NCBI GenBank assembly: GCA_963823745.1
Contig: CAWGMN010000013.1
Location: forward strand, 38,246 to 102,245
Origin: Terriglobia bacterium
Lineage (GTDB): Bacteria > Acidobacteriota > Terriglobia > Terriglobales > Acidobacteriaceae
Reading direction: 5' to 3'
Length of the DNA: 64,000 nt
Shown: one piece after another, positions 11-61,295 of the stretch
Position numbering within the stretch: the stretch's first letter is position 1
Layout: each line of letters opens with the position of its first letter
Translations under genes and position numbers: made by a program
Notes under the pieces: generated by a model
What the model was told of the DNA's origin: nothing
The model's input: only the letters and a program-made list of their open reading frames with translations
The model's database searches: none

Positions 11-136
11 TTGGTAATTGGTAGTTGGTATTTAGCTGCTAGCTGCTAGCTTCTAGCTGCTAGCTCTTGGCTCTTGGCTCTTGGCTCTTGGCTCTTGGCT
101 CTTGGCTTTTGGCTCTTGGCTTTTGGCTTTTGGCCT
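11..136. repeat. Degenerate heptanucleotide tandem array, 18 units in perfect 7-nt register
   Basis: The units read TTGGTAA TTGGTAG TTGGTAT TTAGCTG CTAGCTG CTAGCTT CTAGCTG CTAGCTC, then TTGGCTC/TTGGCTT x9 and TTGGCCT. There is no indel across 126 nt while the unit sequence drifts. Confidence 0.9.
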
Positions 137-1280: not shown

Positions 1281-1336
1281 GTTAGCTAGCTGCCAGATTT
1301 GGCTAGAAGCCAGGAGCTAGCAGCTAGAAGCTATTT
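1281..1336. repeat. Heptanucleotide array, 8 units, abutting the stop codon of the capsid-like gene
   Basis: GTTAGCT AGCTGCC AGATTTG GCTAGAA GCCAGGA GCTAGCA GCTAGAA GCTATTT. The minus-strand TAA stop of ORF 1335..2612 lies in the last unit. Confidence 0.85.
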
Positions 1337-2612
1337 AGTTCCCCGCAGGCACCTTGCAGCTTGTCACGCTCGACAGCGCCTTGGGATTATCCACGTAGAA
1401 CTGAATGGCATCCACGAGGTAGCTTTTCTCCACCGCCTGCGGATTGCCGGTGGTGGTGTCGTACTGCTGGAAGACGCTCTGTCCGCCGCGGTTCTTGAAC
1501 CAGAACGGCGGATTGCCCCACTTGACCTTGCCCCACGATTTCACGTTCACCAGGTCCCAGCGGGTCTGGTCGGCGTGAATGTTGGAGATGATCTCGCGGC
1601 CGTCAATGGTCATCTTCTGGAACAGGCCATCGAAGTTCTTGGCTTTGCCTTCCGACAGCGGAACGTACTGCAACTGGAATCCCAGTTCCTCATAGGCCTG
1701 CAACTGCGACGGATGCGTGTGCCAGATCTGGCCTTTCAGCCCGTCGGGACCCAGGGCCTGCACAATCTGGTTCTGCGCGAGGCGCAACAGCGGCAGAGTA
1801 ATGGAAGAGCTGGCCGCATTCACGCCGTTGGCAACCACGTATCCGTTGGTGCGCGAGATACCCATCAGCGTGCCGCTGGTGGAGGTGGAATGGAACACCG
1901 GAATGCCATTGATGAACGGATCGTTGCCGGTAGCCAGTCCGTCAACCACGATGATGTCGCCCGCCACAGTGCCCGTGGGAACAACGTCAACGGTAACGGA
2001 CTGCGTTCCGCCCAGCGTGTTCTGAATTGCAGTGATGGTGCAACTGCCCCGGTTGGTGGCGAAGTTGGAGGTAAAGACCTGCACCTTCTGGCCCTGCGCC
2101 AGCAGGCGCGAGCCAAAACCGTTGCTCGAATTCGACGCCAGCACCAGAGGATTGGCGCCGCCACCGGCATAAGTCGCGTCTACCGTGGCCAGCTTGCCGT
2201 CGCCATTGGTGTTGAGAAAAATATCTCTCATGCGTTGGATGTAGATGGCAGCGTCGGCAATGGTCTTGGAGACCGGATTCACGGTGGCGACATCTTTCGG
2301 TTCGCCCACCAGATCGGCCAGCCGCGTGTACTGGATCGGCACCGCGTAGGCCAGCGGAGTCACGGTAAACTGGTCCCACTGGCTCGATCCGCCGGAGGGC
2401 AGCGAGCCGCCATCGAGGTTGATCTTGGCCACTGCTCCGGTGAGCGCCGTCTGAATGCGCACGCGGAACGATTTGGTGGAAACGCGGTTCGATCGCCCGT
2501 TGTCCTTAATGCGGCAGTCGAGCGAGTTAGCCGCCTCCACCAGCAGAGGAATTACGTCATTTACGTCTTCCAGTTGCAGAGCAATGGCAGACGATGCGGT
2601 AAGTTGAGGCAT
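1335..2612 (-). CDS. Putative major capsid protein (HK97-fold-like)
   Basis: 425 aa, with an AAGGAC Shine-Dalgarno 5 nt upstream. It lies immediately downstream of the scaffold-like gene and the terminase. The Gly/Thr/Val-rich composition and size fit coat proteins. The call rests on synteny, not on a motif I can name. Confidence 0.55.
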   Translation of the reverse strand: MPQLTASSAIALQLEDVNDVIPLLVEAANSLDCRIKDNGRSNRVSTKSFRVRIQTALTGAVAKINLDGGSLPSGGSSQWDQFTVTPLAYAVPIQYTRLADLVGEPKDVATVNPVSKTIADAAIYIQRMRDIFLNTNGDGKLATVDATYAGGGANPLVLASNSSNGFGSRLLAQGQKVQVFTSNFATNRGSCTITAIQNTLGGTQSVTVDVVPTGTVAGDIIVVDGLATGNDPFINGIPVFHSTSTSGTLMGISRTNGYVVANGVNAASSSITLPLLRLAQNQIVQALGPDGLKGQIWHTHPSQLQAYEELGFQLQYVPLSEGKAKNFDGLFQKMTIDGREIISNIHADQTRWDLVNVKSWGKVKWGNPPFWFKNRGGQSVFQQYDTTTGNPQAVEKSYLVDAIQFYVDNPKALSSVTSCKVPAGN

Positions 2613-6275: not shown

Positions 6276-6463
6276 TGAGCTACTAGCTTCTAGCTTGTGT
6301 GAATCGTTGATAGATTCACGCCGCCTTGAGAAAAGTACAGAGGTCCTTCGGTGCAAAGATCGCACCTCAAGATGACATGCGTTTAGATTTGATAGATATT
6401 GCCGATTCAAATTCGCGCACATTCGCGTAATTCGCGGCAGGGCTTTTTGCATTTGCTTACAAG

Positions 6464-7801
6464 CTACGACAATGCCATCTCTTCCCTCTTCTTGCGCTCG
6501 ATGCCTTCGCGTCCGTCGTAGCGGACGAATTGTGGCAGCGCGATGCCCAGCACCACGGTTCCGAGCACGCACAGGATGCCGCCCGAAACTATTGACGTGC
6601 GAATACTGAACAGGCTGGCTACAATGCCGGCCTCGGCGTTGCCCAGCATGGGGCCGGACATATAGCTCACCATCTCGATCGCCGCCAGCCGTCCGCGCAG
6701 GTGATTGGGGATGGTCTGGTTCCACATGGTCATGCGAAAAAGTCCGCTTACCATGTCGGCAGCGCCCGCCAGCGCCAGGCAGAACAGCGCCAGCCATAAA
6801 TGTCCGGCAAAGCCGAAAGCGATAATCGCCAAACCCCAGATGCCCGCAGCGATGGTAATAGCCAGCCCTTGCCGATGCACACGCGCAGTCCAACCGGACG
6901 CCACGGTGACCACCAGCCCGCCCACGGCCGGCGCCGCATAAAGCAGCCCTACCGTCCCATTACCGAATCGCGTGGCAATGGCTGGAAACAGTGCCATAGG
7001 CATGCCGAAAAACATGGCGTTGATGTCTATGAGATACGTTCCCATCAATTCCTGGCGGCTCCACGCATAGCGCAGGCCTTCGGCAACAGTGCGTAAGCTG
7101 GGCCGGTCGGCGGATGCCGATGCAGGAGCAGCACGCAGCATCCACAGCGCCACCACCGAAATCAACAGCGTGGCCAGATGTATGGAATAGCCAACAGCGG
7201 CCCCGGCTGTTGCGGCAATCGCGCCACCAGCAGCAGGACCGAGAATCGCACTTGCCGTGCCGCCTGCCGCCCGCAACGCGGAAACTGCCGGTATAAGTTC
7301 CGGCGGCACCAGGCGCGGCGTGAGCGCCTCCAGCGATGGACGCTTGAGCGCGCTCAGCCCCGCAAAAATCACCGCGCAGACAAACAGCACCCATACCCTG
7401 GGGTGCGGCAGCAGTGAATTCAATATCATCGCCACGCCGACCAGCGCGGAAAACGATTCCGTGGCCAGCACCATGCGCCGGCGGTCCACCGAATCGGCCA
7501 GTGCGCCACCGATGAATGCCATCGTCAGCATGGGCACAAATTCGGCTGCGGCCAGCATGCCCACCGCCAGCGACGACCGGGTGAGCTGGTACATCTGCCA
7601 GGGCAGCACCACATAGCTCATCATCGCGCCGAAATACGAAACCGTCTGGCTGGTAAAAACCAGACGGTAATCGCGCGAGACCCGAAGCGGCGTCAGATCA
7701 ATCGAAAGCCCGTCTCGCCGCGCCTGCGAAGGTTCAACGGCAGGCTCGGGCAGCGGGTCGGGCGTAAGGTGCGCAGGGCTATGCGGCTGCTGGGTATCCA
7801 C
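6464..7801 (-). CDS. MFS transporter (EntS/MFS_3-like)
   Basis: 445 aa with about 12 hydrophobic segments. It carries an MFS-type loop motif (AFIGGALADSVDRRRMV) after TM2. Confidence 0.85.
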   Translation of the reverse strand: MDTQQPHSPAHLTPDPLPEPAVEPSQARRDGLSIDLTPLRVSRDYRLVFTSQTVSYFGAMMSYVVLPWQMYQLTRSSLAVGMLAAAEFVPMLTMAFIGGALADSVDRRRMVLATESFSALVGVAMILNSLLPHPRVWVLFVCAVIFAGLSALKRPSLEALTPRLVPPELIPAVSALRAAGGTASAILGPAAGGAIAATAGAAVGYSIHLATLLISVVALWMLRAAPASASADRPSLRTVAEGLRYAWSRQELMGTYLIDINAMFFGMPMALFPAIATRFGNGTVGLLYAAPAVGGLVVTVASGWTARVHRQGLAITIAAGIWGLAIIAFGFAGHLWLALFCLALAGAADMVSGLFRMTMWNQTIPNHLRGRLAAIEMVSYMSGPMLGNAEAGIVASLFSIRTSIVSGGILCVLGTVVLGIALPQFVRYDGREGIERKKREEMALS

Positions 7802-10973: not shown

Positions 10974-12272
10974 TCAGGGTTCTTCGGCGGTAGCTTTCAT
11001 GACTTTCGTATATTGGTTTCCAACAGCGAAAGCCGGCAGGAAGCTGCCCATGCCGTTGAATCCGCCATTCACTACTTTTCTGGTCAGCGCAAGTGGATCT
11101 TTTTCCAGCTCCGACTTGTAATCCAGATGCTCATCATTCAGATCTTTCAGAGTGCGTATGTAAAGGTTCAACGACTTCTGCGAATCGAAGCCCTGCTGCC
11201 GAAGAGCTTTGGCCTGCTCTGGTCTGGCCGCCAGATGGTCTTTGAGGAATTGAGCAAAAATAAGCGAAGCAACTTTTGGATCGTCAGCAAGTTCTGGATG
11301 GCCGAGCAGGTCAATACCCAACTTCCTGCCCATCTCCTGATAATTCGCGCGTCCGGTAAGCTGCACGAACCCTCGTCCTTTGTAGCGCTCTCCGTCTCCT
11401 TTTTGTGTGTTTCCAATGCCTGCCTTGAAGTCATATAGATCGAATGGATGGTGGCCGGGCGTTTCCGGTGTGCTGGTATTGGGGTAGCGATGGGCCGGGT
11501 TATCGTCCATTCTCTCGTCTACCGGGGTGAAAGCTGAGCTCTCGGCATTGATGGTGGCAAAGATGTAGGGCATTATCTCCGAATCTGGAATACCGAGATT
11601 CGCCTTTTTCACGGCATCAACAATATTGGGCAAATATTTCGTTACATTGTCCCGGCTGGCTCCGGGAACACTCAGTTGCGCCATTCGTGTTATCTCTGGC
11701 GTAGAACCCGAAAACGTTAGCGACTGCCGCATGTTCGCAGGCAAGGCATTCCTGGAAATATCTTTGACCTGAGCACGGTTGCTTCCGGGCTTCTGGTTCT
11801 GTATAGGCTGCGGACTGGCCCCGCTTGATGAATCCCCGTCTGAGGCAACAGAACGGCCTCCCAGAAAAGCCGGCAGGGGCACATCCATATCCTTGGACCG
11901 CTGTATCCGCGAGGGCAGCGCCACCTGCGCTTTCATGTCTACGATTTCGGGCGTAGATCGCTGGGTGGCGGCCAGAATGCGCTGTGCAAGATTCGATCCA
12001 GTTTTGCCGCCTTGCGGGGAACTGTCCCCTGGCGTTGGAGTCTGCTCATTGGCCGCACTGGTGGCGGCAGAAGTTGCTGTAGCATCATCGGCCGCATAGG
12101 GCCTGCGGCCCATCTGCGCGATCTTCATTCCCAGCGAGTTCGGATCAGCAGGATCACCTTCGGCAGTGGCATCGCTATTGGCATCGGCGTCATCAAGCAG
12201 GCCGGGACGTCGGCCGCGCAGCTTCAACATGGACTGCATGTCCTGGTCATTGGCAAGGTCATCAAAGGGCAT
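10974..12272 (-). CDS. Phage protein with a C-terminal glycoside hydrolase family 19 (lysozyme/chitinase-like) domain
   Basis: It has the GH19 catalytic-region signature GDGERYKGRGFVQLTGRANYQEMG. The start is placed at M56 of ORF 10974..12437 (ATG 12272-12270), which has a GGAG 8 nt upstream and avoids overlap with the portal gene. The N-terminal roughly 280 aa are Ser/Pro/Ala/Asp-rich. Confidence 0.7.
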   Translation of the reverse strand: MPFDDLANDQDMQSMLKLRGRRPGLLDDADANSDATAEGDPADPNSLGMKIAQMGRRPYAADDATATSAATSAANEQTPTPGDSSPQGGKTGSNLAQRILAATQRSTPEIVDMKAQVALPSRIQRSKDMDVPLPAFLGGRSVASDGDSSSGASPQPIQNQKPGSNRAQVKDISRNALPANMRQSLTFSGSTPEITRMAQLSVPGASRDNVTKYLPNIVDAVKKANLGIPDSEIMPYIFATINAESSAFTPVDERMDDNPAHRYPNTSTPETPGHHPFDLYDFKAGIGNTQKGDGERYKGRGFVQLTGRANYQEMGRKLGIDLLGHPELADDPKVASLIFAQFLKDHLAARPEQAKALRQQGFDSQKSLNLYIRTLKDLNDEHLDYKSELEKDPLALTRKVVNGGFNGMGSFLPAFAVGNQYTKVMKATAEEP

Positions 12273-12372
12273 AAGAATGGCTCCGAAAAAGTTTGGAATT
12301 GCCAGCAGACGTGCCGCGCCGGCACACACAATCAGAATTGCGGTGAATCTGTGAGAATCAGTTCGAACCGTG

Positions 12373-14079
12373 TCATCCGTGCTGAGGTCTTGGAGGCGGA
12401 GCGGGCGGCTGCTGTTTCTGCGCCTGCTCCGTGCCATATTGCACGGCCAGCTTGTAATACAGCACCACGTTCCTGAAGCCGTCGGGCGCTTCGTGCTGCT
12501 TGTCGAAATTCTTTTGCGCCCAGTGGCGAACTGTCTTGACGATCACATCCATATCGTCGAGCGTCTTGTCAGGCTGAATCGAAGGCAGCTCGATCAAACT
12601 CTTTCCAGTCTGCGGATGCAGCGGCCCGGCAGCTACCGGCTTCTGTTCCATCAACACATCGAGAATGCGCAGCACTTTGTTGCGCATGTCGCGTCCGGGC
12701 ACAACCAGTCCCGGCACGCCCACGGTCTGCGCCGCCTGCTCCTGGTTGGCAGGATCTTCCATGACCGACTGCGCGAACGGGTTCTTTTCCGCCTGCTGGA
12801 TCATGTTCATCCAGAAGTCGCGCATCTCTGATGCGCTCATGGGGAAGCCCTGGTCGGTTTCCGGCAACGCATGCACGCTGCCCTGAAGCTCATCGAGGCG
12901 CACATACTGGTTGCGATACTCGCCGGTCTGGTCGGCAATCACCGAGATCAGATCGTCGGTCATGTTGGCCTGCGCGCATTCCACTGCGACTTCAGCGGCC
13001 TGGGCATGCTCTTCGCGAATGTTGTCCCAGAAGAGTGACAGCTTGCCCATGGCGGTGGATAGCTGCTGTTCCTGCCCACCCTTGGTCTCAATGTGCGGAT
13101 CACCTGCGCCTCCAAATACCTGGGGCGGCGTGCCCGAAATCAACTGCGCGGTAAAAACAAGCTGCTGCTGGTAGCTGTAGATATTGGCGTCAATCTCGGC
13201 CTTGATCTGCACAATGGCATCTTCGAGGCGGTTGCCCATGGCCGAAGCGGTCTGCTTCATCTTGACGCCGTTCAACATGCCGGGCGCCATGGACTTGCCA
13301 TGAAAGGCCTCACCGTCAATCAAATTGGAGTTGTAGAGCACGATGCCCGCGGCAATGCGGTTCATATATTCATGGGTAATGTTCGAGGCATCGTTGATGC
13401 GCTCCTGCACAGGGATGGCCGCATCGCCCACCGCCGGCGGGTACAGGCCGAAAGTTTCCTGCACCGTGCCCGCCCACGTCCACTCGTCGGTGAGCCGCGC
13501 GTCGCGGGCTTCCAGAAACAGATCGCCTACGTTCACCAGCAGGCATCCGCGGGGAAAGATTTCCTTGAGCTTGAGCGCGGTGTTCTTGTCGTCTACGGCG
13601 TTGAATGCCCACGGCTGGATCCATGTGCGGGACAGCGTGGGCATCATGTCCTGTATGAAGCTCGACTGCGACCCTTCTTCCGAATAGATCATCTGCCGCG
13701 CCATGCGCTCGTTTTGCGCCTCGGACAGCATGGGACCGAGCGATCCTTTCAGCGATTCCCACTGCTCCGGATACGAAGCGCGCAGCGACGAAAGGTCCAC
13801 TTCTTCATCCACGTTGAGAATGGGAGTCTCGCGCAGGTTCTTGGCATAAGGCGCGGAATCCACCATGAGCGGCGAATACAAAGTCATGGCCACCATGCCG
13901 TTGGGGACATCTTCACTCTGAGCCGCTACCGGAATCTCAGCCGTCTCGGCAGGATAGAAATCATGGTCGCCTAGTTCGTTTCCGCATTGAGGGCATTGTT
14001 GGGGCAAAGCGGCCGCTTGATGGACTGTATCTGATCCAGCCTGGTTTTCTCCGTGCCTGAGTGTCTCGGTGGTTGGCAT
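12373..14079 (-). CDS. Portal-like protein, C-terminal segment (frame-broken from 13961..14773)
   Basis: 568 aa. The size, a Q/E-rich helical stretch, the ISGTPPQVFGGAGDP loop and its position in the structural cluster fit a portal. The N-terminus carries CPQCG, the second half of a zinc ribbon whose first half lies in the upstream segment. Confidence 0.55.
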   Translation of the reverse strand: MPTTETLRHGENQAGSDTVHQAAALPQQCPQCGNELGDHDFYPAETAEIPVAAQSEDVPNGMVAMTLYSPLMVDSAPYAKNLRETPILNVDEEVDLSSLRASYPEQWESLKGSLGPMLSEAQNERMARQMIYSEEGSQSSFIQDMMPTLSRTWIQPWAFNAVDDKNTALKLKEIFPRGCLLVNVGDLFLEARDARLTDEWTWAGTVQETFGLYPPAVGDAAIPVQERINDASNITHEYMNRIAAGIVLYNSNLIDGEAFHGKSMAPGMLNGVKMKQTASAMGNRLEDAIVQIKAEIDANIYSYQQQLVFTAQLISGTPPQVFGGAGDPHIETKGGQEQQLSTAMGKLSLFWDNIREEHAQAAEVAVECAQANMTDDLISVIADQTGEYRNQYVRLDELQGSVHALPETDQGFPMSASEMRDFWMNMIQQAEKNPFAQSVMEDPANQEQAAQTVGVPGLVVPGRDMRNKVLRILDVLMEQKPVAAGPLHPQTGKSLIELPSIQPDKTLDDMDVIVKTVRHWAQKNFDKQHEAPDGFRNVVLYYKLAVQYGTEQAQKQQPPAPPPRPQHG

Positions 14080-14773: not shown

Positions 14774-14860
14774 AAAGCAGTTCTTACCGCTGATTTACAT
14801 GCGAAGATAGTTCTTACCGCTGATTACGCTGATAAACGCTGATTAAAGAATTGGGTTGGC

Positions 14861-14916
14861 TAGAAGCTAGAAGCCAGAAGCTAGGAGCCAGAAGCTACGA
14901 GCTAGAAGCTAGGACT
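14861..14916. repeat. Heptanucleotide array, 8 units
   Basis: TAGAAGC TAGAAGC CAGAAGC TAGGAGC CAGAAGC TACGAGC TAGAAGC TAGGACT. Confidence 0.9.
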
Positions 14917-14950: not shown

Positions 14951-15053
14951 GCGTAACCGAATCCCGGAGGGATGACATTTTTGAGCCCAGCACGTGAGTG
15001 CTGGGAAGCAGAAGATACGAATCGAGTCCCGCCAGGGACGGCATAAGGTTTTT
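14951..15053. repeat. Modular hairpin repeat, family A, copy 1
   Basis: Modules are ATCCC-GGA-GGGAT, then CCCAGCAC-GTGA-GTGCTGGG (14986-15005), then GTCCC-GCCA-GGGAC followed by GGCATAAG. It is near-identical to 27850..27953. Confidence 0.85.
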
Positions 15054-15103
15054 ACGTACGTCAACAGCAGTTCTTACCGCTGATTATTAACGCTGATCAA
15101 GAA

Positions 15104-15145
15104 TTGGCTTGAAGCTAGTAGCTAGAAGCTAGCAGCTAGCAGCTA
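15104..15145. repeat. Heptanucleotide array, 6 units
   Basis: TTGGCTT GAAGCTA GTAGCTA GAAGCTA GCAGCTA GCAGCTA. It supplies the TAG stop (15136-15138, minus strand) of the adjacent small ORF. Confidence 0.85.
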
Positions 15146-15482
15146 TCTTTCATCATTTTCTGTCGCTCGGCTTCGGCGGCTTTGCCCGGACGCACCCTGC
15201 GCAGCCAGCGATCTTCCGCCAGGCGATCTTGCCTGCGCATGATCGCGCTCGGACGCATCGGCACCGCCGGTTGCGCGCGCTGCTCTTCTCTTTGCCGGGC
15301 TCTTCGGGCGCAGCGCCTGGCAGTGGGGAGAAAAGCGGAGCGCCAATGCCCAGCAGGCAAATCTTGTCCCACAGAAGACGGCGCTCCGCCTCAAGTTCTC
15401 GGATACGCTGGTCCTTGGCATCAATCAGGCGCGCCCACAATTGGCATTCGGCGTTATGGCGAGAACGGGAGATGAAAAACAT
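15136..15482 (-). CDS. Hypothetical small protein with a probable frame break
   Basis: The N-terminal part MFFISRSRHNAECQLWARLIDAKDQRIRELEAERRLLWDKI.. comes from ORF 15153..15482. The C-terminal part ..EEQRAQPAVPMRPSAIMRRQDRLAEDRWLRRVRPGKAAEAERQKMMKDSC comes from ORF 15136..15372. The junction is near an A/G-rich run. Confidence 0.35.
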
Positions 15483-15486
15483 AATA

Positions 15487-15521
15487 TAGCTTCTAGCTCC
15501 TGGCTGCTAGCTTCTAGCTAA
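15487..15521. repeat. Heptanucleotide array, 5 units
   Basis: TAGCTTC TAGCTCC TGGCTGC TAGCTTC TAGCTAA. Confidence 0.85.
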
Positions 15522-15593
15522 AGCAAATGTGCTGTTCTAAAAGCTTCTTGGATTTCTATGTTGATTATTGCGATGTAGCTGTGGTTATTGAGA

Positions 15594-15635
15594 CAAAAGC
15601 TAACAGCTAGAAGCTAGCGGCTAGCAGCTATTCAA
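15594..15635. repeat. Heptanucleotide array, 6 units
   Basis: CAAAAGC TAACAGC TAGAAGC TAGCGGC TAGCAGC TATTCAA. It contains the TAG stop of ORF 15628..15987. Confidence 0.85.
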
Positions 15636-15987
15636 TTTCCGTCACTCTTAACGTCGTGCCGGTCACTGTCTTTGACTTCACCTTGATATACGTTGTCGCC
15701 GGAATGGTGGCGCCGCCGGTGTTCTGGGCGGGCAGGCCCAACAGGTTGCCGCGCCCTTGAGCGTGGGCAACCACGTTGCCGAGCACGATCTGCGGCTGGT
15801 CGGGTCCTGCCGGTGTTCCGCAGACAAAGGTCGCGGTAAAGTTGTCTTCCGGCTTCTGGTATTGCAGCCCCTGCGCGGTCACCGATTCGTCTTCACGCAG
15901 TTCCACGCGGCGGGCCGGAATCGTAGACGGAATCGTAGTAAATGCTCCGGCGCTTCCGTTCAAAGTGTAGAGGGTTGTCTTGGGCAT
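15628..15987 (-). CDS. Hypothetical small beta-rich phage-cluster protein
   Basis: 119 aa with an AGGAAG SD-like element 4-5 nt upstream. Thr/Gly/Val-rich. Bracketed by heptad arrays. Confidence 0.5.
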   Translation of the reverse strand: MPKTTLYTLNGSAGAFTTIPSTIPARRVELREDESVTAQGLQYQKPEDNFTATFVCGTPAGPDQPQIVLGNVVAHAQGRGNLLGLPAQNTGGATIPATTYIKVKSKTVTGTTLRVTEIE

Positions 15988-16794: not shown

Positions 16795-16810
16795 GGGGGT
16801 AAAAGCGGCT

Positions 16811-16936
16811 ATTGGCTGTTGGCTGTTGGCTCTTAGCTTTTGGCTCTTGGCTTGTGGCGTGAGCCGTTAGCTGTTAGCAATGAGCTTTTCGTTCTTCGTT
16901 TTTGCTTTTCGGTTTGGCTTCTGAAGCTAGCAGCTA
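16811..16936. repeat. Heptanucleotide array, about 18 units
   Basis: ATTGGCT GTTGGCT GTTGGCT CTTAGCT TTTGGCT CTTGGCT TGTGGCG TGAGCCG TTAGCTG TTAGCAA TGAGCTT ... GAAGCTA GCAGCTA. It ends on the TAG stop of ORF 16934..17224. Confidence 0.8.
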
Positions 16937-17224
16937 GTGGTGATATTTCTCTTCTTCATCGCGGTAATGGTCGAGCTTGTTCTCGATGCGGTCTACGGTG
17001 TGCTTCACCTCGTCCATCTCGCGGCGTGTGGCTGAGCTGTTTTCCAGCAACTCAAGGCGTCGTTCGTGGTCCTGGGCAACGTCTTGCGCGTGCTGCGAAC
17101 TGGACTTATAGCCGCCGAACCAGACCACGGCGGCCATGACCATAGTCCCGATAAAACTCAAAAGGCCGCCTACATGGGGCCGCAGGTGATCAAAGAGTGT
17201 GCCAGGGGTAGAAGCATGGCTCAT
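16934..17224 (-). CDS. Single-TM protein with a coiled-coil tail
   Basis: 96 aa with a TM segment GGLLSFIGTMVMAAVVWFGGY followed by a charged helical region (RRLELLENSSATRREMDEVKHTVDRIENKLDHYRDEEE). An AAGGAC SD-like element lies upstream. Confidence 0.5.
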   Translation of the reverse strand: MSHASTPGTLFDHLRPHVGGLLSFIGTMVMAAVVWFGGYKSSSQHAQDVAQDHERRLELLENSSATRREMDEVKHTVDRIENKLDHYRDEEEKYHH

Positions 17225-18082: not shown

Positions 18083-19709
18083 CTAGTTCATGCGTCCCGT
18101 CACCAACACCTGCAAGTTTGTTGGGGCAGTAGTGCATGTTCCGGCATTTATCTTGATATAAATCGTATCACCAGCGTTGTACGTTTGAAGTGTTGTTGTT
18201 GCCCACTCGTTGGTTCCGGAAGTCAGACTCACAGTAGGCCCCGTTATCGTGCTGGAACCGTTTGCGAGAGAAACCGTAGGACTTACACTGCAGGTTGCGT
18301 TGGTAGTAGGAGAAAATACGTGAATCTCCTCTATGACTGTTGATTGGCTACGAGTAAAAGCGGCTTGATTCGCAGTAAAGATGGTGCCGCTCTGATATGC
18401 TGCTCCCACCAAAAAATGCGGCCCCTTACTCTGAGCAGTATCGCCGTTAATTGCTAGACTCGTAGCAGTAGTGGGGCCAAGTGTGCTTGCATTGGCTGTG
18501 AGCGTCTGTCCAGTAGCATTGACTGGTCCGCTGAATTTAGCTCCTGCGCTGCCGCCCACATTCGTAACGTTGCTGCCGTCAATCTGCACTGCGCACACGT
18601 CGCCCGTTCCGGCGGCGTTTCGCGAGGCCACCGCGCAGACGTTGTTGCCCGTGCGTTCCACGCCGGATTGCGCGGGAGCGGCGCTGCGGTCCACGAATGC
18701 GCCACCCTGGTAACCTCCGAATCCGCTCAGCAGCAACAGATCGGCCAGATTGCCGGTAGCCGCAGAAGCGGCCCCGGCATCCGCCATACAATCATCGGCA
18801 GTGTTGGCTGCATTTCTCATGCAAGTCACAAAGTCCGTGGCAGATCCTCGCAGCAGACCTGTTCCTGAAGGATTCGCCGAGCTGGAAACATAGGCTCCCG
18901 CGGTCATGGGAAAACCGTTGAGCGTGAGCGGCCCGTTGATGGACTGCTGCGCATTCGCGATGGGAGTTCCTACTATCGCCTGCGGGTACACCACAATGCC
19001 GCTATACAGCGGAGTTCCCTGCCCGACGTTGACCGTTCCATTGGCCCCGCCGCTCAGATACCACTTCTGCGGGAAGCCGCCCACCTGCGCTCCCGCCGAG
19101 TTCACCAGGTTTACGTTGTAGCCCGTATACGAAGGCGTAAGCTGGTCATTGAAAAAGACAGAACACACCGAAGTGTTGGAAGCCGGCAGGGCCACACCCG
19201 CGACCAGCGCCGAAGCCTGCGAATAATTGGAGGCAAAACCGGTGACCGAGCCCTGTCTGGTTTCCGCGCCGCCCGCCGGCGAGATATACACGTTGTATCC
19301 GGTGGCCCCGCTCCTGGCCGGTGGAGCGGCAATGATCAGCGTTCCCGTTCCGCCAATCGTAAAAGAGTTCTCCGGACTGGCCGCCGATTCGCCTGTGGCG
19401 TTGAAGTAGGTCACACGATAAAAGTATGTCCCCGCAGCCAGAGTGCCGCTGCCCAGATTCTGTGAAGGCGCAGGCGTCACCAGCAGGTTGGGGACTCCGA
19501 CAACATTCCCGCTCGCGTCGGTGTAACAACTAGCCGGATTCGTGGCGAGCGTCGCCGTTCCCGCCAGCACCGCTGATTGCGTCAACGAAAAAGTGAGAGT
19601 TCCATTGGCGATCCCCTGCCCCGAACTGGGCAGCGAGATCGTGCCGGATACAGTGCCGGCCGGTGCTATGGCAGGCAGCAGCAATAGTGCGAATAGAAGA
19701 GTTTTTCAT
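18083..19709 (-). CDS. Secreted Gly/Thr/Ser/Ala-rich beta protein (tail-fibre-like composition, function unknown)
   Basis: 533 aa ORF 18083..19684. ATG 19709-19707 followed by an A5 run (plus-strand T run 19702-19706) is out of frame by one base. With A4 the product would begin MKTLLFALLLLPAIAPAGTVSG, a clean signal peptide. Confidence 0.55.
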
Positions 19710-19721
19710 AAGAGAGCAATT

Positions 19722-20625
19722 GGCAATTCAGCAATTAGCATTCAGCCCGCTTGCAGCTCTGGCTGAAGGCTTCGGCTGATCGTGGGCATGGTTGAAGTTT
19801 TGGAAAAGCAAAACGGGACTTCACGACAAATGTTTCGTGGCCCTAAACAGCATTGGGGTTATAGCGATCCCTCGCTATGCTCGGGATTTAAATCTGAATT
19901 CGGAATTCAGCATTCAGCCCGCTTGCATTTTGGCTAAAGGCTTCGGCTGTCGTGGGCATGGTTGAGGGTTTGGAAAAGGCGATGCTTCGTTGCCCCAAAG
20001 AGCATTGGCGCTTATAGGGATCCCTCGCTGCGCTCGGGATAAATCTGAAAGCACCCTCGCTGTGCTCGGGATAAATCTGAAAGCACCCTCGCTGCACTCG
20101 GGATTAAAAAAGCTTGAAGATTCGAAGCACCCCGAGACGGGGTGCCATATGTTAGCCCAGCGGCGTAAGCCCTGGGTTAGAAACGGAAACAATCTGAGCC
20201 CCGCACCGGGGCGGCACATAGTTAGAATTCAAAACAGAAACATCGCTTGTCGTGCGAATGCCTTGTTACAGCATCGTGCATGATACATTTCGTGGATCCT
20301 TCGACGGCGCCCTCACTCCTTCGTCGCTCGTGCTTGCTCAGGATGACAGAACTCAGCGATTGGCATCAGCAATTAGCATTCAGCCCGCATGCATCTCTGG
20401 CTAAAAGGCTTCGGCTATCGTGGGCTTGGTTGAGGGTTTGGAAAAGGCGAATGGTTACGTCGTCCCCAAAGAGCATTGGCGCTTATAGGGATCCCTCGCT
20501 GCGCTCGGGACTAAATGTGAAAGCACCCTCGCTGCGCTCGGGATAAATCTGAAAGCACCCTCGCTGCACTCGGGATTAAAATCTGCTGCGCTGGGGATTG
20601 AATCTGAAAGCGCTCGGGTTCAATT
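19722..20625. repeat. Three copies of a roughly 180-270 bp composite element with internal ~32-nt direct tandem units
   Basis: The copies begin near 19722, 19898 and 20350. They share ATTAGCATTCAGCCCGC.TGCA..TCTGGCT.AAGGCTTCGGCT.TCGTGGGC.TGGTTGA.G.TTTGGAAAAG. Tandem units CCCTCGCTGCGCTCGGGATAAATCTGAAAGCA occur at 20012-20097 and 20493-20610. Confidence 0.85.
20127..20220. repeat. Modular hairpin repeat, family C (inverted copy)
   Basis: GCACCCCG-AGA-CGGGGTGC, then CATATGTTAGCCCAGCGGCGTAAGCCCTGGG, then GCCCCGCACCGGGGCGGCA. It is the reverse complement of the pattern at 22255..22351. Confidence 0.8.
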
Positions 20626-20819
20626 CAGGAACGGTGACGCGATTGCAAACGCATGCGCACGCCGCGGCACAGGGAACGTGAGCATATTGTTCCGCCGCCG
20701 GAATCACGCAGCATGGGCTGGCGGCATAGCCGGCATTCGGTATAGTTCACTGCGTTGCGCTGCGCCGACGAGTGCAGCGCCGGGTGATAGATCTCATCGA
20801 ATTCACGTTCTCCGCGCAT
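20625..20819 (-). CDS. Small Cys-rich (zinc-ribbon-like) protein
   Basis: 64 aa with CRLC..(14 aa)..CSRSLC. An AGGAG SD lies 7 nt upstream, and the ATG is 1 nt after the stop of the upstream ORF. Confidence 0.45.
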   Translation of the reverse strand: MRGEREFDEIYHPALHSSAQRNAVNYTECRLCRQPMLRDSGGGTICSRSLCRGVRMRLQSRHRS

Positions 20820-20820
20820 A

Positions 20821-21339: not shown

Positions 21340-21427
21340 AAAGTGGTGTCACTACGCCGCCACTGTGGTGTCACTACGCCACCACTACGCCGCCGTTGTG
21401 GTACCACTACGCCGTCATTACACCCTC
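21340..21427. repeat. 11-nt phased two-word array, 8 units (reverse orientation)
   Basis: ..GTGGTGTC ACTACGCCGCC ACTGTGGTGTC ACTACGCCACC ACTACGCCGCC GTTGTGGTACC ACTACGCCGTC ATTACACCCTC, in perfect 11-nt register. It overlaps the 3-prime end of the RHH gene. Confidence 0.9.
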
Positions 21428-21939: not shown

Positions 21940-22440
21940 CTTATTGATATAGAGCAAACGGGAATGGCCTCAGCCATTCCGGGCGCCCTTTCGGGTACGG
22001 GAGGTTCATAGAACATGCGGGCTTCAGAATCAGGTGAAGCCCGTTCGCTTCATTTACGCAGGGCCTCAAGTGTATGTGCTGAATTTGTATGCGCCAACGA
22101 GACATGTAACAGGGCATGACTTCAGTCATGTGACGACACAAGTATCAGGGCACGAGTTTACTCGTGCCGTAAAAGCGCATAAAGATTGGGCTTTAGCCTA
22201 ATGTCACTTACTTTGAACGTCTGTGTTTTGCAACGGGCATTGCTGTACAAACTTTATGCCGCCCCGGTGCGGGGCTCCTCTCTTTTTGCTGGCTTTTTCC
22301 CAGGGCTTACGCCGCTGGGCTAACATATGCCGCCCCGTCTCGGGGCGGTGCTCTGAAAGTAAGTGACATTGGGCGTTAGCCCCTGCACACCTTCGACCTC
22401 ACAGTACTGTCCCCGCGAAATCGAGTTCTCACACACGCTC
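21940..22440. repeat. Cluster of hairpin repeat modules (families C and D and others)
   Basis: GGAATGGC-CTCA-GCCATTCC; GGGCTTCA..TGAAGCCC; CAGGGCATGACTTCAGTCATG; GGCACGAG-TTTA-CTCGTGCC (about 22149-22168); family C at 22255-22351; TTGGGCGTTAGCCCCTGCACACCTTCGACCTCACAGTA at 22371-22425. Confidence 0.8.
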
Positions 22441-22503: not shown

Positions 22504-22558
22504 GGCGGCGTAGTGGCGGCGTAGTGACACCACAGTGGCGGCGTAGTGACACCACTTG
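22504..22558. repeat. 11-nt phased two-word array, 5 units (forward orientation)
   Basis: GGCGGCGTAGT GGCGGCGTAGT GACACCACAGT GGCGGCGTAGT GACACCACTTG. It is inverted relative to 21340..21427. Confidence 0.9.
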
Positions 22559-23120: not shown

Positions 23121-23310
23121 TATGCCGCCCCGTTGCGGGGCTCACTTCTTTTACTTCCGCCTTCTTTTACTTCGGAAACCCAGGGCTTACGCCGCTGGGC
23201 TAACATATAGCGCCCCGTCTCGGGGCGCTTGCTCTTCAATACCCCACTTACAAAATTACCCACTTACCCATTTCATTCATCTCTGCGCTCCCTGCGAGCT
23301 CTGCGGTAAG
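23121..23310. repeat. Family C hairpin repeat plus extension. The segment 23178-23309 is a direct repeat of 24466-24596.
   Basis: The shared string is ACCCAGGGCTTACGCC.CTGGGCTAACATATAGCGCCCCG.CTCGGGGC..TTG.TCTTCAATACCCCACTTACA.AATTACCCACTTACCCATT...CTGCGC.C.CTGCGA.CTCTGCGGTAA. Confidence 0.85.
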
Positions 23311-24319: not shown

Positions 24320-24465
24320 AAAAATTCCTCTTCCGGTTGGGAATCGAATTGGAGCCACATGCAGCCGCGGGCAGCTTTCCGGCAGCGCCTTATGATACAC
24401 AAACAGCGCTGCGAGGCCCTAAGCATCGCGGCACGATAGAGATGCGAGGCCCGCAAACCTCCGCA

Positions 24466-24596
24466 ACCCAGGGCTTACGCCACTGGGCTAACATATAGCG
24501 CCCCGGCTCGGGGCTCTTGATCTTCAATACCCCACTTACAGAATTACCCACTTACCCATTGAACCGTTTCTGCGCACTCTGCGAACTCTGCGGTAA
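24466..24596. repeat. Direct repeat partner of 23178-23309
   Basis: See 23121..23310. About 88% identity by eye over roughly 130 nt. Confidence 0.85.
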
Positions 24597-27849: not shown

Positions 27850-27953
27850 GCGCAACTCGAATCCCGGAGGGATGCCATTTTTGAGCCCAGCACGTGAGTG
27901 CTGGGAAAAGCAGGAAAATGAATAGAGTCCCGTTAGGGACGGCATAAGTTTTT
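27850..27953. repeat. Modular hairpin repeat, family A, copy 2
   Basis: It has the same module order as 14951..15053. The third loop differs: GTCCC-GTTA-GGGAC here versus GTCCC-GCCA-GGGAC. Confidence 0.85.
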
Positions 27954-39134: not shown

Positions 39135-39211
39135 GGCGGTGTAGTGGCACCACAACGGCGGCGTAGTGGTACCACAACGGCGGCGTAGTGGCGGCGTAGT
39201 GACACCATTGC
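39135..39211. repeat. 11-nt phased two-word array, 7 units
   Basis: GGCGGTGTAGT GGCACCACAAC GGCGGCGTAGT GGTACCACAAC GGCGGCGTAGT GGCGGCGTAGT GACACCATTGC. It has the same 3-prime flank (TTGCTTGC-like) as 22504..22558. Confidence 0.9.
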
Positions 39212-39360: not shown

Positions 39361-39461
39361 TGTAGCGGATGTAGCGGATGTAGCGCATTGTAGCGGATGT
39401 AGCGCACTCGGTTTTGAGCGTTTCAGCCGCTGTTCATGCGGCTTGTAGCGGATGTAGCGGA
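39361..39461. repeat. Nonamer TGTAGCGGA/TGTAGCGCA array (5 units, a 37-nt gap, then 2 units)
   Basis: 39361-39406 reads TGTAGCGGA TGTAGCGGA TGTAGCGCA t TGTAGCGGA TGTAGCGCA, and 39444-39461 reads TGTAGCGGA TGTAGCGGA. Confidence 0.9.
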
Positions 39462-51616: not shown

Positions 51617-52560
51617 TTACGAGACCGTCAGCGTGCCATTGATCAAGTTGATCTGATAATTGCCGAGCGCCGGGTTCGGACCAGCGCTAGGAATAATCGG
51701 ATAGGTTCCCGCCGGGCTGGTCTGGCATCCGCAGGACTCGAGTAAGCTGGCCGTGATCGCATCGTTGTTCTTCATCCCGGTAATGGTTCCGGTAAACGTC
51801 GGGTTCGGATCACCGACAGCGCGGCTGGCGTCGGCGGCCTGCAATGTCAGCGGCGCCGGAGTCACCGTAAGCGTCCCGTTCGTGGAAGTGACACGTGTAG
51901 TTGCTCAGCTGCCCGTTGGGATCAGACCAGCAGGAGTGATCGCATACGTCCCTACAGCGCTGGCTGGAGTCGGCGATGCTCGCAACGTGGCAGTGATCGG
52001 GTCGTTGTTCTTCAGATCCGGTAATGTGCCGGTAAACGCCGGGTTCGGGATCACCGTAGAAGCGGCTTGCATCCCCGGCGGCCACAGACAGCGGGGCCTG
52101 GTGTGATCGTGAGTGTTCCCGTGCGGTGACTGCGTAGTTGCGCAGCAGGTTATTCGGATCGTTAAAGGCCGGAATGATCGGGTACGTTCCCACAGGGCTG
52201 GTCGGAGTCTGCTGCTATTCCGAAGGTGGCAGTGATGTTGTCGCCATTCTTCAAGCCGCTCAGAGTACCGGTAAATACCGGATTCGGGTCCCCATACACG
52301 CGGCTTAAGCTGATGGCTGCCGCCGTCAGTGGCGCTTGTGTAATGGTGAGCGTGCCGTTAACGACGCTGAGCACGTAGTTGCTCAGCTTAGCTGTTGGAT
52401 CACTGAAAGTGGGAACGATTGCATAGCTGCCGACGGGGCTGGTGGGATCAGCGGCGCTCGAGTAGCTGGCGGTGATGTTGTCGCCATTCTTGAGACCGGC
52501 AATGGTTCCCGTAAACGTCGGGTTAGGATCGCCATAAACACGGCTCGTATTCGCCGCAGT
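51617..52560 (-). CDS. C-terminal four MBG repeats of the giant surface protein (at least four frame breaks)
   Basis: The fragments in ORFs 52162..52374, 51810..52193 and 51617..51865 all read as LT..A...SR.YGDPNP.FTG...G.KN.D.ITA.. units. The final unit ends ..INLINGTLTVS, with the stop at 51617. Confidence 0.7.
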
Positions 52561-60923: not shown

Positions 60924-60958
60924 CGGAGCAAATAGCAATTGGCAGTTAGCAATTTAGC
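60924..60958. repeat. Heptanucleotide array, 5 units
   Basis: CGGAGCA AATAGCA ATTGGCA GTTAGCA ATTTAGC. Confidence 0.75.
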
Positions 60959-61151: not shown

Positions 61152-61207
61152 TAGTACTTGGTACTTAGTACTTGGTACTTGGTACTTGGTACTTGGTACT
61201 TGGTACT
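61152..61207. repeat. Near-perfect heptanucleotide SSR (TGGTACT/TAGTACT) x8
   Basis: TAGTACT TGGTACT TAGTACT, then TGGTACT x5. The last five units are identical. Confidence 0.95.
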
Positions 61208-61232
61208 TGAGGCCGGCAACCATCTTGCTTGA

Positions 61233-61295
61233 CTAATTGCTAATTGCCAATTGCTATTTGCTTTCCTAAGTACCAACTACTAATTACTAAGTACT
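61233..61295. repeat. Heptanucleotide array, 9 units
   Basis: CTAATTG CTAATTG CCAATTG CTATTTG CTTTCCT AAGTACC AACTACT AATTACT AAGTACT. Confidence 0.8.

Follow-up and report, generated by a model that had tools for sequence, protein, structure and literature searches.

Heptanucleotide Arrays of the Terriglobia Are the Arms of Polar Hairpins

The 64,000-nucleotide (nt) stretch of a Terriglobia bacterium genome analyzed here (assembly GCA_963823745.1, contig CAWGMN010000013.1, positions 38,246 to 102,245; hereafter the window) contains arrays of degenerate heptanucleotides that are the arms of hairpins, that is, extragenic palindromes built of 7-nt repeats. These hairpins are a genome-wide feature of the Terriglobia and of their phages and prophages, not a device of the phage-like cluster at the beginning of the window. 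The best overall explanation, which we hold to be reasonably probable, is that they are slippage-driven intercistronic mRNA hairpins of the Terriglobia, akin to the short tandemly repeated repetitive (STRR) sequences of cyanobacteria and the repetitive extragenic palindromes (REP) of Enterobacteria. A first-pass annotation made from the letters of the window had described the arrays and missed the inverted pairing and the fixed polarity, which changes the nature of the object.

A genome scan for GCTAGNAGCTAGNAGCTAGNAGC with one genome per species returned at least 120 loci. Among the 120 matches listed, 88 are from Acidobacteriota, mostly Terriglobales and including the cultured Bryocella elongata, and these 88 loci together with the window and two relatives form the set in which hairpin organization was analyzed. 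Neighboring arrays no more than 500 nt apart are inverted in 48 cases versus direct in 7, with a median loop of 55 nt and arms usually of four to five tandem 7-mers (up to 18). The polarity of the arms is fixed: 5′ arms consist of YYRG plus 3 nt (TCAG, TTAG, CTAG, TTGG) and 3′ arms of CYRR plus 3 nt (CTGA, CTAA, CTAG, CCAA), with a count of 53:5 (p = 3.5e-11) and an identical reading on either strand. Variant units are mirrored in their order between arms beyond unit composition (unit-order permutation, Wilcoxon p = 3.7e-6). Partner and nonpartner arms of the CTAG family did not differ (22.28 vs 22.25 of 24), since the family has too few variable positions. A YYRG/CYRR core is present in 162 of the 185 arrays that fall outside the selection imposed by the search pattern, compared with 61 ± 6 for letter-shuffled units, and the unit therefore comprises a 4-nt core and 3 free positions. 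Outside the Acidobacteria the CYRR core is not significant (10/23 vs 7.4 ± 2.1). Across the loci studied, 79 different consensus units were counted, in agreement with the earlier proposal that the period rather than the unit sequence is conserved.

The 7-nt period is far above chance, as had been suspected. A self-match scan of the window detected 11 arrays at period 7 and 0–2 at the other periods from 4 to 12, against a mean of 0.01 period-7 arrays in 100 block-shuffled windows, and the listed acidobacterial loci contain 219 period-7 arrays versus 0–15 at each other period. Tandem Repeats Finder recovered a period-7 signal at 12 of the 13 places previously listed in the window; the thirteenth (60924–60958) is not a period-7 call of that program and is an inverted-repeat arm, 96% complementary to 61235–61262. 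Three further arrays (19713–19747, 19890–19918, and 20350–20386) had not been listed. The drift from TTGGTAA through CTAGCTG to TTGGCTC in a single register at 11–136 is exactly as first described, and a longer example is found in B. elongata DSM 22489 (NZ_FNVA01000002.1, near 366.3 kb; our locus L147, 6330–6490), where a 23-unit array between codirectional genes drifts in one register from GATGCTA through GATGCGA and GAAGCGA to GAAGCTA. Several of the original details did not survive: the register does slip, with a 1-nt core shift within 1054–1130 and another within 16807–16939; the supposed 18-unit array at 16811–16936 is really a 5′ arm (16807–16858) separated by degenerate sequence from a short 3′ arm (16920–16936); and 6277–6297 holds only 2.7 units.

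The concern that the arrays might be assembly artefacts can be set aside. An independent metagenome assembly (L158) encoding an identical capsid protein shares the spacer arrays with the window and has one additional GTACCAA unit, which excludes an artefact and indicates that unit number is polymorphic; arrays are also carried by Mb-scale contigs from metagenome-assembled genomes and by an isolate genome. CTAG, a frequent core, is otherwise rare in the window, with 32 of 62 sites falling within the ~1 kb of arrays and the 30 sites in the remaining 63 kb amounting to 0.13 of expectation; CTAA and TTAG are likewise depleted (0.33 and 0.42 of expectation). No Rfam family covers the arrays, the only nearby matches being to the Acido-Lenti-1 motif, and clustered regularly interspaced short palindromic repeats (CRISPR) are ruled out by the period of 7 and the lack of fixed-size spacers.

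Hairpins Occupy Spacers within Operons of Hosts and Phages

The first 19.7 kb of the window form a phage-like cluster that encodes a large terminase (phrog_2, 2e-12) and a product weakly matching a major head protein, and the window is acidobacterial based on capsid homologs on Candidatus Angelobacter contigs and three Acido-Lenti-1 RNA motifs. Arrays had been thought to fill almost every spacer of this phage-like cluster; they occupy about 6 of its ~16 spacers of at least 40 nt. The association with phage genes is incidental: the same hairpins occur on acidobacterial chromosomes, in ribosomal protein, rpoA, secY, and ATP synthase operons. Genes flanking the hairpins encode L18, S5, S13, S11, S4, L17, L22, RpoA, RpoC, SecY, Adk, ATP synthase, and Nuo, and the hairpin-bearing junctions between codirectional genes include L18–S5, S13–S11, and secY–adk. 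The spc/alpha ribosomal protein operon accounts for 10 of the 88 acidobacterial loci listed. Arrays were also found in 32 viral contigs, mostly from soil and with 56–64% G+C.

Enrichment in intergenic DNA, which had been put forward as a check, is pronounced: 10.6% of array bases lie in called genes compared with 80.5% of all bases of the loci. Hairpin spacers lie between codirectional genes in 38 of 44 cases, above the baselines given by gene pairs (72%, p = 0.019) and by spacer bases (62%, p = 4e-4), and only 3 of 44 are flanked by convergent pairs.

Three observations concern individual contigs. Locus L087 has 14 arrays within a single 8-kb stretch. Contig DATJWZ010000111.1 (L130), labeled Candidatus Eisenbacteria, is probably misbinned; its ribosomal proteins are 83–96% identical to those of an Acidobacteriaceae genome, and the same hairpins are present on it. 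Four viral contigs of 27–30% G+C (L005, L014, L024, and L030), one of them labeled GVMAG, carry perfect GCTAGAA arrays of seven to nine units adjoining AT-rich period-7 arrays (ACAAAAT); these contigs are giant-virus-like and represent an unrelated lineage in which this unit recurs.

Hairpins Span the Gap from Stop to Start and Persist at Conserved Junctions

In predicted folds of 36 codirectional spacers, the main stem begins a median of 3 nt past the stop codon (interquartile range 0–5; 34/36 within 10 nt) and ends a median of 7 nt ahead of the called start (24/36 within 15 nt). The consensus of the 5′ junction is stop-RAR-(G/C)CAG. Within the window, predicted RNA folds of hairpins H2, H5, and H3 (table 1) greatly exceed shuffled sequence in stability, with z-scores of −7.5, −6.2, and −2.8, respectively. 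H2 begins 2 nt past the capsid TAA, and in the predicted fold of H3 (15487–15635) the upstream TAG lies inside the stem with 11 nt to the next ATG.

The L18–S5 junction is occupied by a hairpin in all six species compared, built from different units (CAGCTTT, CTTCTAG, CAGGGAT, and CAGTGAA), and at least four of the six hairpins are distinct from the array by which their locus was recruited. An alignment of the six spacers shows compensatory change on both sides in 14 of 22 pairs, with 86.4% of cells paired versus 70.4 ± 2.5 when shuffled (0/500), and pairing falls to 23–49% when partners are slid. A hairpin is likewise present at the S13–S11 junction in three species; the fourth (L146) has an overlapping TAATG in its place, as expected if the hairpin preserves the proximity of stop and start.

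Arrays Abut Native Stop Codons Rather than Supplying Them

The first-pass annotation had proposed that the arrays act as multiframe stop barriers or transcriptional insulators of phage genes, or as slippage-prone contingency switches. In favor of a stop barrier, 3′-arm cores are mostly C plus a stop codon and give stops in three frames, with stops on at least one strand in 128 of the 185 arrays outside search-pattern selection versus 97.5 ± 5.6 expected, and several window open reading frames (ORFs) have as their stop the first TAG that an array offers. The six-frame stop holds for CTAG units; it does not hold generally, as cores include CTGA, CTAA, and CTAG but also the stopless CCAA and CTGG, and about one third (CCAA, CTGG, CCAG) have no stop. 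Five ORFs were said to terminate on an array stop, which is correct for the stops at 330, 15628, and 16934, each being the TAG of the first array unit. The stop at 15136 is that of a doubtful frame, the 109-aa ORF there ending with TGATGA at 15150–15155, and the capsid TAA at 1335 precedes its array and is conserved in the arrayless homologs L036 and L037. The minus-strand gene at 301–1047 has its true C-terminus (…GIREHVGA*) at TAG 330–332, the first unit of the 3′ arm of H1, at the same position as its homologs (…GIREHLGN*). Given this placement and the retention of the capsid stop where arrays are missing, the stops are native ones next to which the arrays lie, not ones that the arrays provide.

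A transcriptional insulator or terminator role is unlikely because the hairpins sit inside operons that need read-through, some of them essential, and because terminator-like sites in the phage-like cluster do not exceed chance (29 vs 21.7 ± 4.9 in shuffles); promoter-like sites in the cluster are not above shuffles, and none overlap arrays beyond chance. The terminator count, the 3 of 44 convergent pairs and the hairpins within spc/alpha operons speak against intrinsic terminators as a class. Slippage and unit-number differences among near-identical strains, which a contingency switch predicts, are real. The contingency role itself is unlikely: the arrays lie outside both ORFs and promoter spacers, so that a 7-nt change cannot switch a frame. 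With phage specificity largely refuted, we consider the stop-barrier, insulator, and switch proposals very improbable.

Arms Turn Over by Whole Units while Remaining Complementary

Comparison of the window with the independent assembly L158 and three prophage relatives (L033, L034, and L035, with capsid proteins 88% identical) revealed that they differ in how many and which units the arrays contain, in nesting, and in whether arrays are present at all. Orthologous spacers of the prophage relatives have other units, nesting, and counts, with the layout A1 A2 … A2′ A1′ in one relative versus A1 B … B′ A1′ in another. A ~380-nt element upstream of the capsid gene is found in L033 and L034 and is missing from the window, and more distant relatives at 74% and 64% identity (L036 and L037) are arrayless with tight gene packing. 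In the cultured Acidobacterium capsulatum, mutation-accumulation lines showed an over-representation of indels in noncoding DNA; Table S4 of that study includes noncoding indels of ~7–8 nt with strings such as TAGCTTT, CTGAGGA, AGTCCTC, and TCCAATA (exact lengths are uncertain in the machine-read text), which the authors did not score as simple repeats (PMC8717266). These indels are experimental evidence that this relative undergoes slippage by about one unit. Together, these data show in part that replication slippage adds whole units to the arms and removes them and that whole hairpins appear, disappear, and nest while the arms stay complementary.

Nested and interleaved layouts and presence or absence at orthologous sites would also fit mobile elements resembling miniature inverted-repeat transposable elements (MITEs) or REPs and bacterial interspersed mosaic elements (BIMEs), copied by a RAYT/TnpA-Y1-type transposase with the heptamer arms as binding sites. 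One arm type (AGCAAAT AGCAATT GGCAATT…) is common to the window, L033, and L034, and class 3 HuH-Y1 proteins with high-copy hairpins have been reported in Acidobacteria (10.1101/279083). Nevertheless, we judge this origin extremely improbable: the hairpins of one genome share units and not loops or variant order, different units occupy the same junction in different species, no target-site duplications were seen, and no transposase match was found among the window ORFs scanned, including next to the arrays. No loop sequence recurs in the window, where only an Acido-Lenti-1 segment and the 19.7–20.8 kb repeat region do so; these unique loops and the lack of flanking direct repeats in the sequences inspected speak against MITEs.

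The main rival to an mRNA hairpin is a neutral or selfish by-product, in which slippage expands heptamers and tight gaps tolerate only self-complementary versions that fold away, leaving functionless hairpins. Fast gain, loss, and replacement among close relatives, with none in L036 and L037, agree with it, as do unequal arms (e.g., 18 vs 5 units in H1) and the about one-unit indels of A. capsulatum. Among long simple repeats, heptamers are reported to be the most common class in many prokaryotes, and polymerase slippage has been given as their origin (Mrazek 2007, as cited in PMC4679880 and PMC4692102). Slippage alone does not predict the 53:5 polarity or the 4-nt core in 162/185 arrays. Also against a by-product are the persistence of the L18–S5 hairpin in 6/6 species despite complete unit turnover, the over-representation of ribosomal protein operons (10/88 listed loci), and the strong avoidance of CTAG elsewhere in the genome. 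On balance we regard a functionless by-product as unlikely.

Relationship to Known Repeat Families

The acidobacterial hairpins are a counterpart of cyanobacterial STRR sequences, which the first-pass annotation had correctly named as the closest analog: they differ in unit sequence and host and are otherwise of the same kind. Both consist of tandem 7-nt units in many intergenic copies per genome and form hairpins between cotranscribed genes (here predicted from sequence), and STRR1 and STRR2 contain a YYRG/CYRR core. For the STRR hairpins in the hupS–hupL spacer, a role in transcript stability or translational coupling has been proposed (PMC2670836). Unlike STRR, the host is an acidobacterium of the Terriglobia rather than a heterocystous cyanobacterium, and the units are far more varied (79 consensus sequences) with CTAG and CTGA cores dominant; none of STRR1 (CCCCAGT), STRR2 (TTGGTCA), and STRR3 (CAACAGT) is among the top 40 of the 79 units, the nearest being TTGGTAA and TTGGTAC. 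In the open-access full-text literature we found no description of such arrays in Acidobacteria, as the first-pass annotation had supposed, no STRR description that includes a fixed polarity, a start ~3 nt past the stop, or occupancy of ribosomal protein junctions, and no prior account of the polarity, of the 4+3 unit grammar, or of hairpins kept at ribosomal protein operon junctions.

Heptamers are reported to be the most abundant periodic repeat of intergenic DNA, with a function that is unknown (10.1101/309039). Other families include TAACTGA of Beggiatoaceae, Cyanobacteria, and Bacteroidetes and GGGAATC of Xanthomonas (PMC4679880, PMC4692102), which resemble the acidobacterial repeats in being intergenic, with a period of 7, near starts, variable in length between relatives, and occasionally arranged as inverted pairs; one acidobacterial unit, GAACTGA, is a single base away from TAACTGA. 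In contrast to these families, which have essentially one unit per genome and form mostly direct arrays upstream of starts, many unit families coexist here and two-armed hairpins extending from stop to start predominate.

REP/BIME sequences are similarly palindromes of intercistronic or 3′ regions, often within ~15 nt of the stop. According to Newbury (1987) and Liang, Rudd and Deutscher (2015), REPs reportedly stabilize upstream mRNA and affect translation of the upstream gene. Unlike REPs, which have a conserved consensus, a cognate RAYT transposase, and no internal 7-nt periodicity, it is the period and the 4-nt core that are conserved in the acidobacterial hairpins. A genome-wide consensus of the REP/BIME kind is absent, as units differ among the hairpins of one genome and between species at a given junction. 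Integron attC sites (RYYYAAC/GTTRRRY) do not fit either: the cores are YYRG/CYRR, gene order is that of a conserved phage module or a ribosomal protein operon rather than of a cassette array, and no integrase match was found among the window ORFs scanned.

Proposed Function in Polycistronic mRNA

As the hairpins lie inside codirectional operons, including at ribosomal protein junctions, they must be part of polycistronic mRNA. The transcribed hairpin would fold into a ~25–35-bp stem starting ~3 nt past the stop, within the footprint of the terminating ribosome, and often reaching to within ~15 nt of the next start. Such a stem, like those of REP/BIME and STRR, could shield the upstream cistron from 3′ exonucleases or serve as a processing site. 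Its base would join the nt just past the stop to those just ahead of the next start and so hold stop and start together. Because the base joins stop-proximal and start-proximal nt, downstream initiation would depend on a ribosome terminating upstream, amounting to translational coupling.

Several considerations weigh against this interpretation, and we offer a role in mRNA stability, processing, or translational coupling tentatively, at somewhat less than even odds, since each of its RNA-level steps is one that we infer. Among stem mismatches, G:U is not in excess over A:C on the sense strand (46 vs 50); strong RNA-level selection should give such an excess, and a DNA-level process may instead maintain complementarity. 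The same lack of bias speaks for a by-product. Hairpins are absent from the 64–74% identical prophage relatives and are thus dispensable there, the window arrays 14859–14916 and 15104–15145 have no partner arm, and H5 and H6 are hundreds of nt away from any gene. Only 9 of 25 spacers have a Shine–Dalgarno-like motif within the 16 nt preceding the start, and the motif is not significantly enriched in the last units of the 3′ arm (9, 9, and 5 of 25 in the three bins). The starts come from a crude ORF caller and are biased toward the array edge by 3′-arm stops, and the genome sample was itself chosen via a CTAG pattern, with at least 120 loci listed. Moreover, the proposed model gives no reason for a period of 7 instead of 6 or 8.

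Neither an mRNA hairpin nor a by-product explains the period of 7 or the polarity, and this keeps alive the idea of a protein that reads one core per 7 nt on single-stranded RNA or DNA, the hairpin form being secondary. Candidates might be cold-shock or OB-fold domains, a HutP-like ring protein, or a nucleoid protein on duplex DNA. HutP binds UAG-N4-UAG-N4-UAG (NAG triplets with 4-nt spacers), and CTAG-type arms have this UAG-N4 spacing. In contrast to HutP and TRAP sites, which are leader antiterminators, the heptamers form paired hairpins in intercistronic gaps and many units have no UAG. A 4-nt core, 3 free positions, and a strict period are what a modular reader needs, the fixed polarity suggests that it would be directional, and CspB binds at about one monomer per heptamer (PMC4679880). 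The candidate proteins remain hypothetical, however, the cores are degenerate (CTGA, CTAA, CTAG, CCAA, CTGG), and arms that are complementary, mirrored in their variants, and covarying across species point to pairing and not just to a one-strand motif; we therefore think arrays serving chiefly as protein-binding sites quite improbable. A broader possibility, improbable in our estimation, is that a dedicated Terriglobia system lies behind the polarity, the C-plus-stop 4-nt core, the 7-nt period, and the hairpins conserved in position within ribosomal protein operons. It might be a reader, such as a protein or ribosome-linked mechanism measuring 7 nt on mRNA at termination–reinitiation, or a writer, that is, machinery that builds complementary heptamer arms.

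Features of the Window

Coordinates of the arms, the unpaired arrays, and the inverted pairs of hairpins H1–H6 are collected in table 1. H5 and H6 are interleaved in the order A-B-A′-B′.

Table 1. Heptanucleotide arrays and inverted pairs in the window
Feature	Position	Units and context
H1 5′ arm	11–136	18 units in one register: TTGGTAA ×3, TTAGCTG/CTAGCTN ×5, TTGGCTY ×10; Tandem Repeats Finder rows 7–30, 33–65, 63–134; pairs with 297–335, 86–95% complementary
H1 3′ arm	297–335	AGAGCCA, AGAGCTA, then AGCAGCT; unit order mirrors 5′ arm; holds true TAG stop (330–332) of frameshifted minus-strand gene 301/330–1047
H1 inverted pair	87–109 / 297–319	91% complementary
H2 5′ arm	1054–1130	TTGGTAT-type ×4, then CTAGCT-type ×5, with 1-nt core shift between; end 7 nt from ATG (1047) of minus-strand gene
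H2 3′ arm	1281–1336	GCTAGAA, GCCAGGA, GCTAGCA…; also present in independent assembly L158; begins 1–2 nt past TAA stop of capsid-like gene (1335–1337, minus strand)
H2 inverted pair	1095–1118 / 1302–1325	88% complementary
Unpaired marginal array	6278–6296	CTAGCTT, 2.7 units; no partner arm
3′-arm-type array	14859–14916	GCYAGRA, eight units; no adjacent partner; spacer shared with Acido-Lenti-1 RNA motif
3′-arm-type array	15104–15145	GAAGCTA/GCAGCTA; 8 nt from TGATGA stop of ORF 15153–15482; complementary to 15487–15521 across that ORF
H3 5′ arm	15487–15521	TAGCTTC, TAGCTCC, TGGCTGC…; adjoins start of minus-strand ORF 15153–15482; 88% complementary pair
H3 3′ arm	15594–15635	First unit is TAG stop of minus-strand ORF 15628–15987
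H3 inverted pair	15494–15519 / 15605–15630	88% complementary
H4 5′ arm	16807–16858	GGCTNTT ×7; begins ~12 nt from ATG 16795 of small minus-strand ORF
H4 interarm stretch	16859–16919	Degenerate, 1-nt shifted
H4 3′ arm	16920–16936	Short: GAAGCTA, GCAGCTAG; includes TAG stop of ORF 16934–17224
Short array	19713–19747	AGCAATT/AGCATTC; heads ~170–207-nt repeat unit; more copies at 19890–19918 and 20350–20386
H5 5′ arm	60924–60958	AGCAAAT, AGCAATT, GGCAGTT, AGCAATT; 28 nt 96% complementary to 61235–61262
H5 3′ arm	61233–61262	CTAATTG, CTAATTG, CCAATTG, CTATTTG
H5 inverted pair	60927–60954 / 61235–61262	96% complementary
H6 5′ arm	61152–61209	TTGGTAC ×8; Tandem Repeats Finder 8.0 copies, 95% matches
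H6 3′ arm	61266–61295	AAGTACC, AACTACT, AATTACT, AAGTACT
H6 inverted pair	61153–61180 / 61268–61295	89% complementary (range over matches 85–89%)

Other repeats accompany the arrays. The three Acido-Lenti-1 motifs (RF01687) are located at 14960–15005 (−), 27860–27905 (−), and 24467–24515 (+), scoring 55, 55, and 37 bits, respectively; the first lies between two heptamer arrays, and a ~95-nt segment including it (14958–15052) recurs at 27858–27953 with 89% identity. An 18–20-nt motif, CAGTTCTTACCGCTGATT, occurs three times (14776–14795, 14809–14826, and 15066–15085), just before two 3′-arm-type arrays, and a related inverted pair, AACCGCTGATGA / TCATCAGCGGTT, is found in the loop of H2 (1199–1277). 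The region 19685–20820 is repeat-rich and noncoding, with a 207-nt duplication (19909–20109 / 20375–20581, 93% identical) and tandem 32-nt units of CCCTCGCTGCGCTCGGGATAAATCTGAAAGCA that occur twice in 2.6–2.8 copies, each with a short palindrome; segments of it recur at 22257–22345, 23123–23230, and 24465–24513. Eight copies of a 19–22-nt motif, GGCGGCGTAGTGACACCAC, form clusters at 21343–21416 (−), 22515–22555 (+), and 39135–39208 (+), against 0.01 expected, and five copies of TGTAGCGGA lie near the last of these (39361–39404); the two may represent a REP-like family or binding sites.

Among the genes, the minus-strand gene at 301–1047, next after the capsid-like gene, has a frameshift near codon 170, and both its N-terminal 170 residues and its C-terminal part match homologs in L033, L034, L036, and L037. 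The frameshift is either a pseudogene mutation or a sequencing error and hints at a decaying prophage. The second half of ORF 15153–15482 looks out of frame. The phage-like cluster also contains a major facilitator superfamily transporter gene at its middle (6464–7801, −; MFS_3, 5e-34) and a 487-aa ORF (10974–12437, −) with a short chitinase class I or lysozyme-like stretch. Farther downstream is a pair of giant surface proteins (52523–57673 and 57778–60168, both −), the first comprising 14 MBG_2 domains with DUF11, an Ig-like domain, and a beta-propeller and having a 240-nt periodicity in its DNA at 53540–53990 and 56530–57104.

Implications

Genome annotators should be aware that intercistronic gaps are widened by these hairpins, that spurious small ORFs and start calls tend to arise at them, and that they contain most of the genome's otherwise avoided CTAG sites. 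The acidobacterial set adds testable constraints to the study of intergenic heptamers, namely a polar two-armed hairpin, a 4+3 unit grammar, a stop offset of ~3 nt, and the persistence of a hairpin at the same operon junction while its units turn over. Cultured hosts exist in A. capsulatum, in which slippage of about one unit has been recorded, and in B. elongata, whose 23-unit array offers a convenient entry point for experiments. If a reader or writer system of the kind considered above does exist in the Terriglobia, it would provide the first functional explanation of the prokaryote-wide excess of intergenic heptamers.

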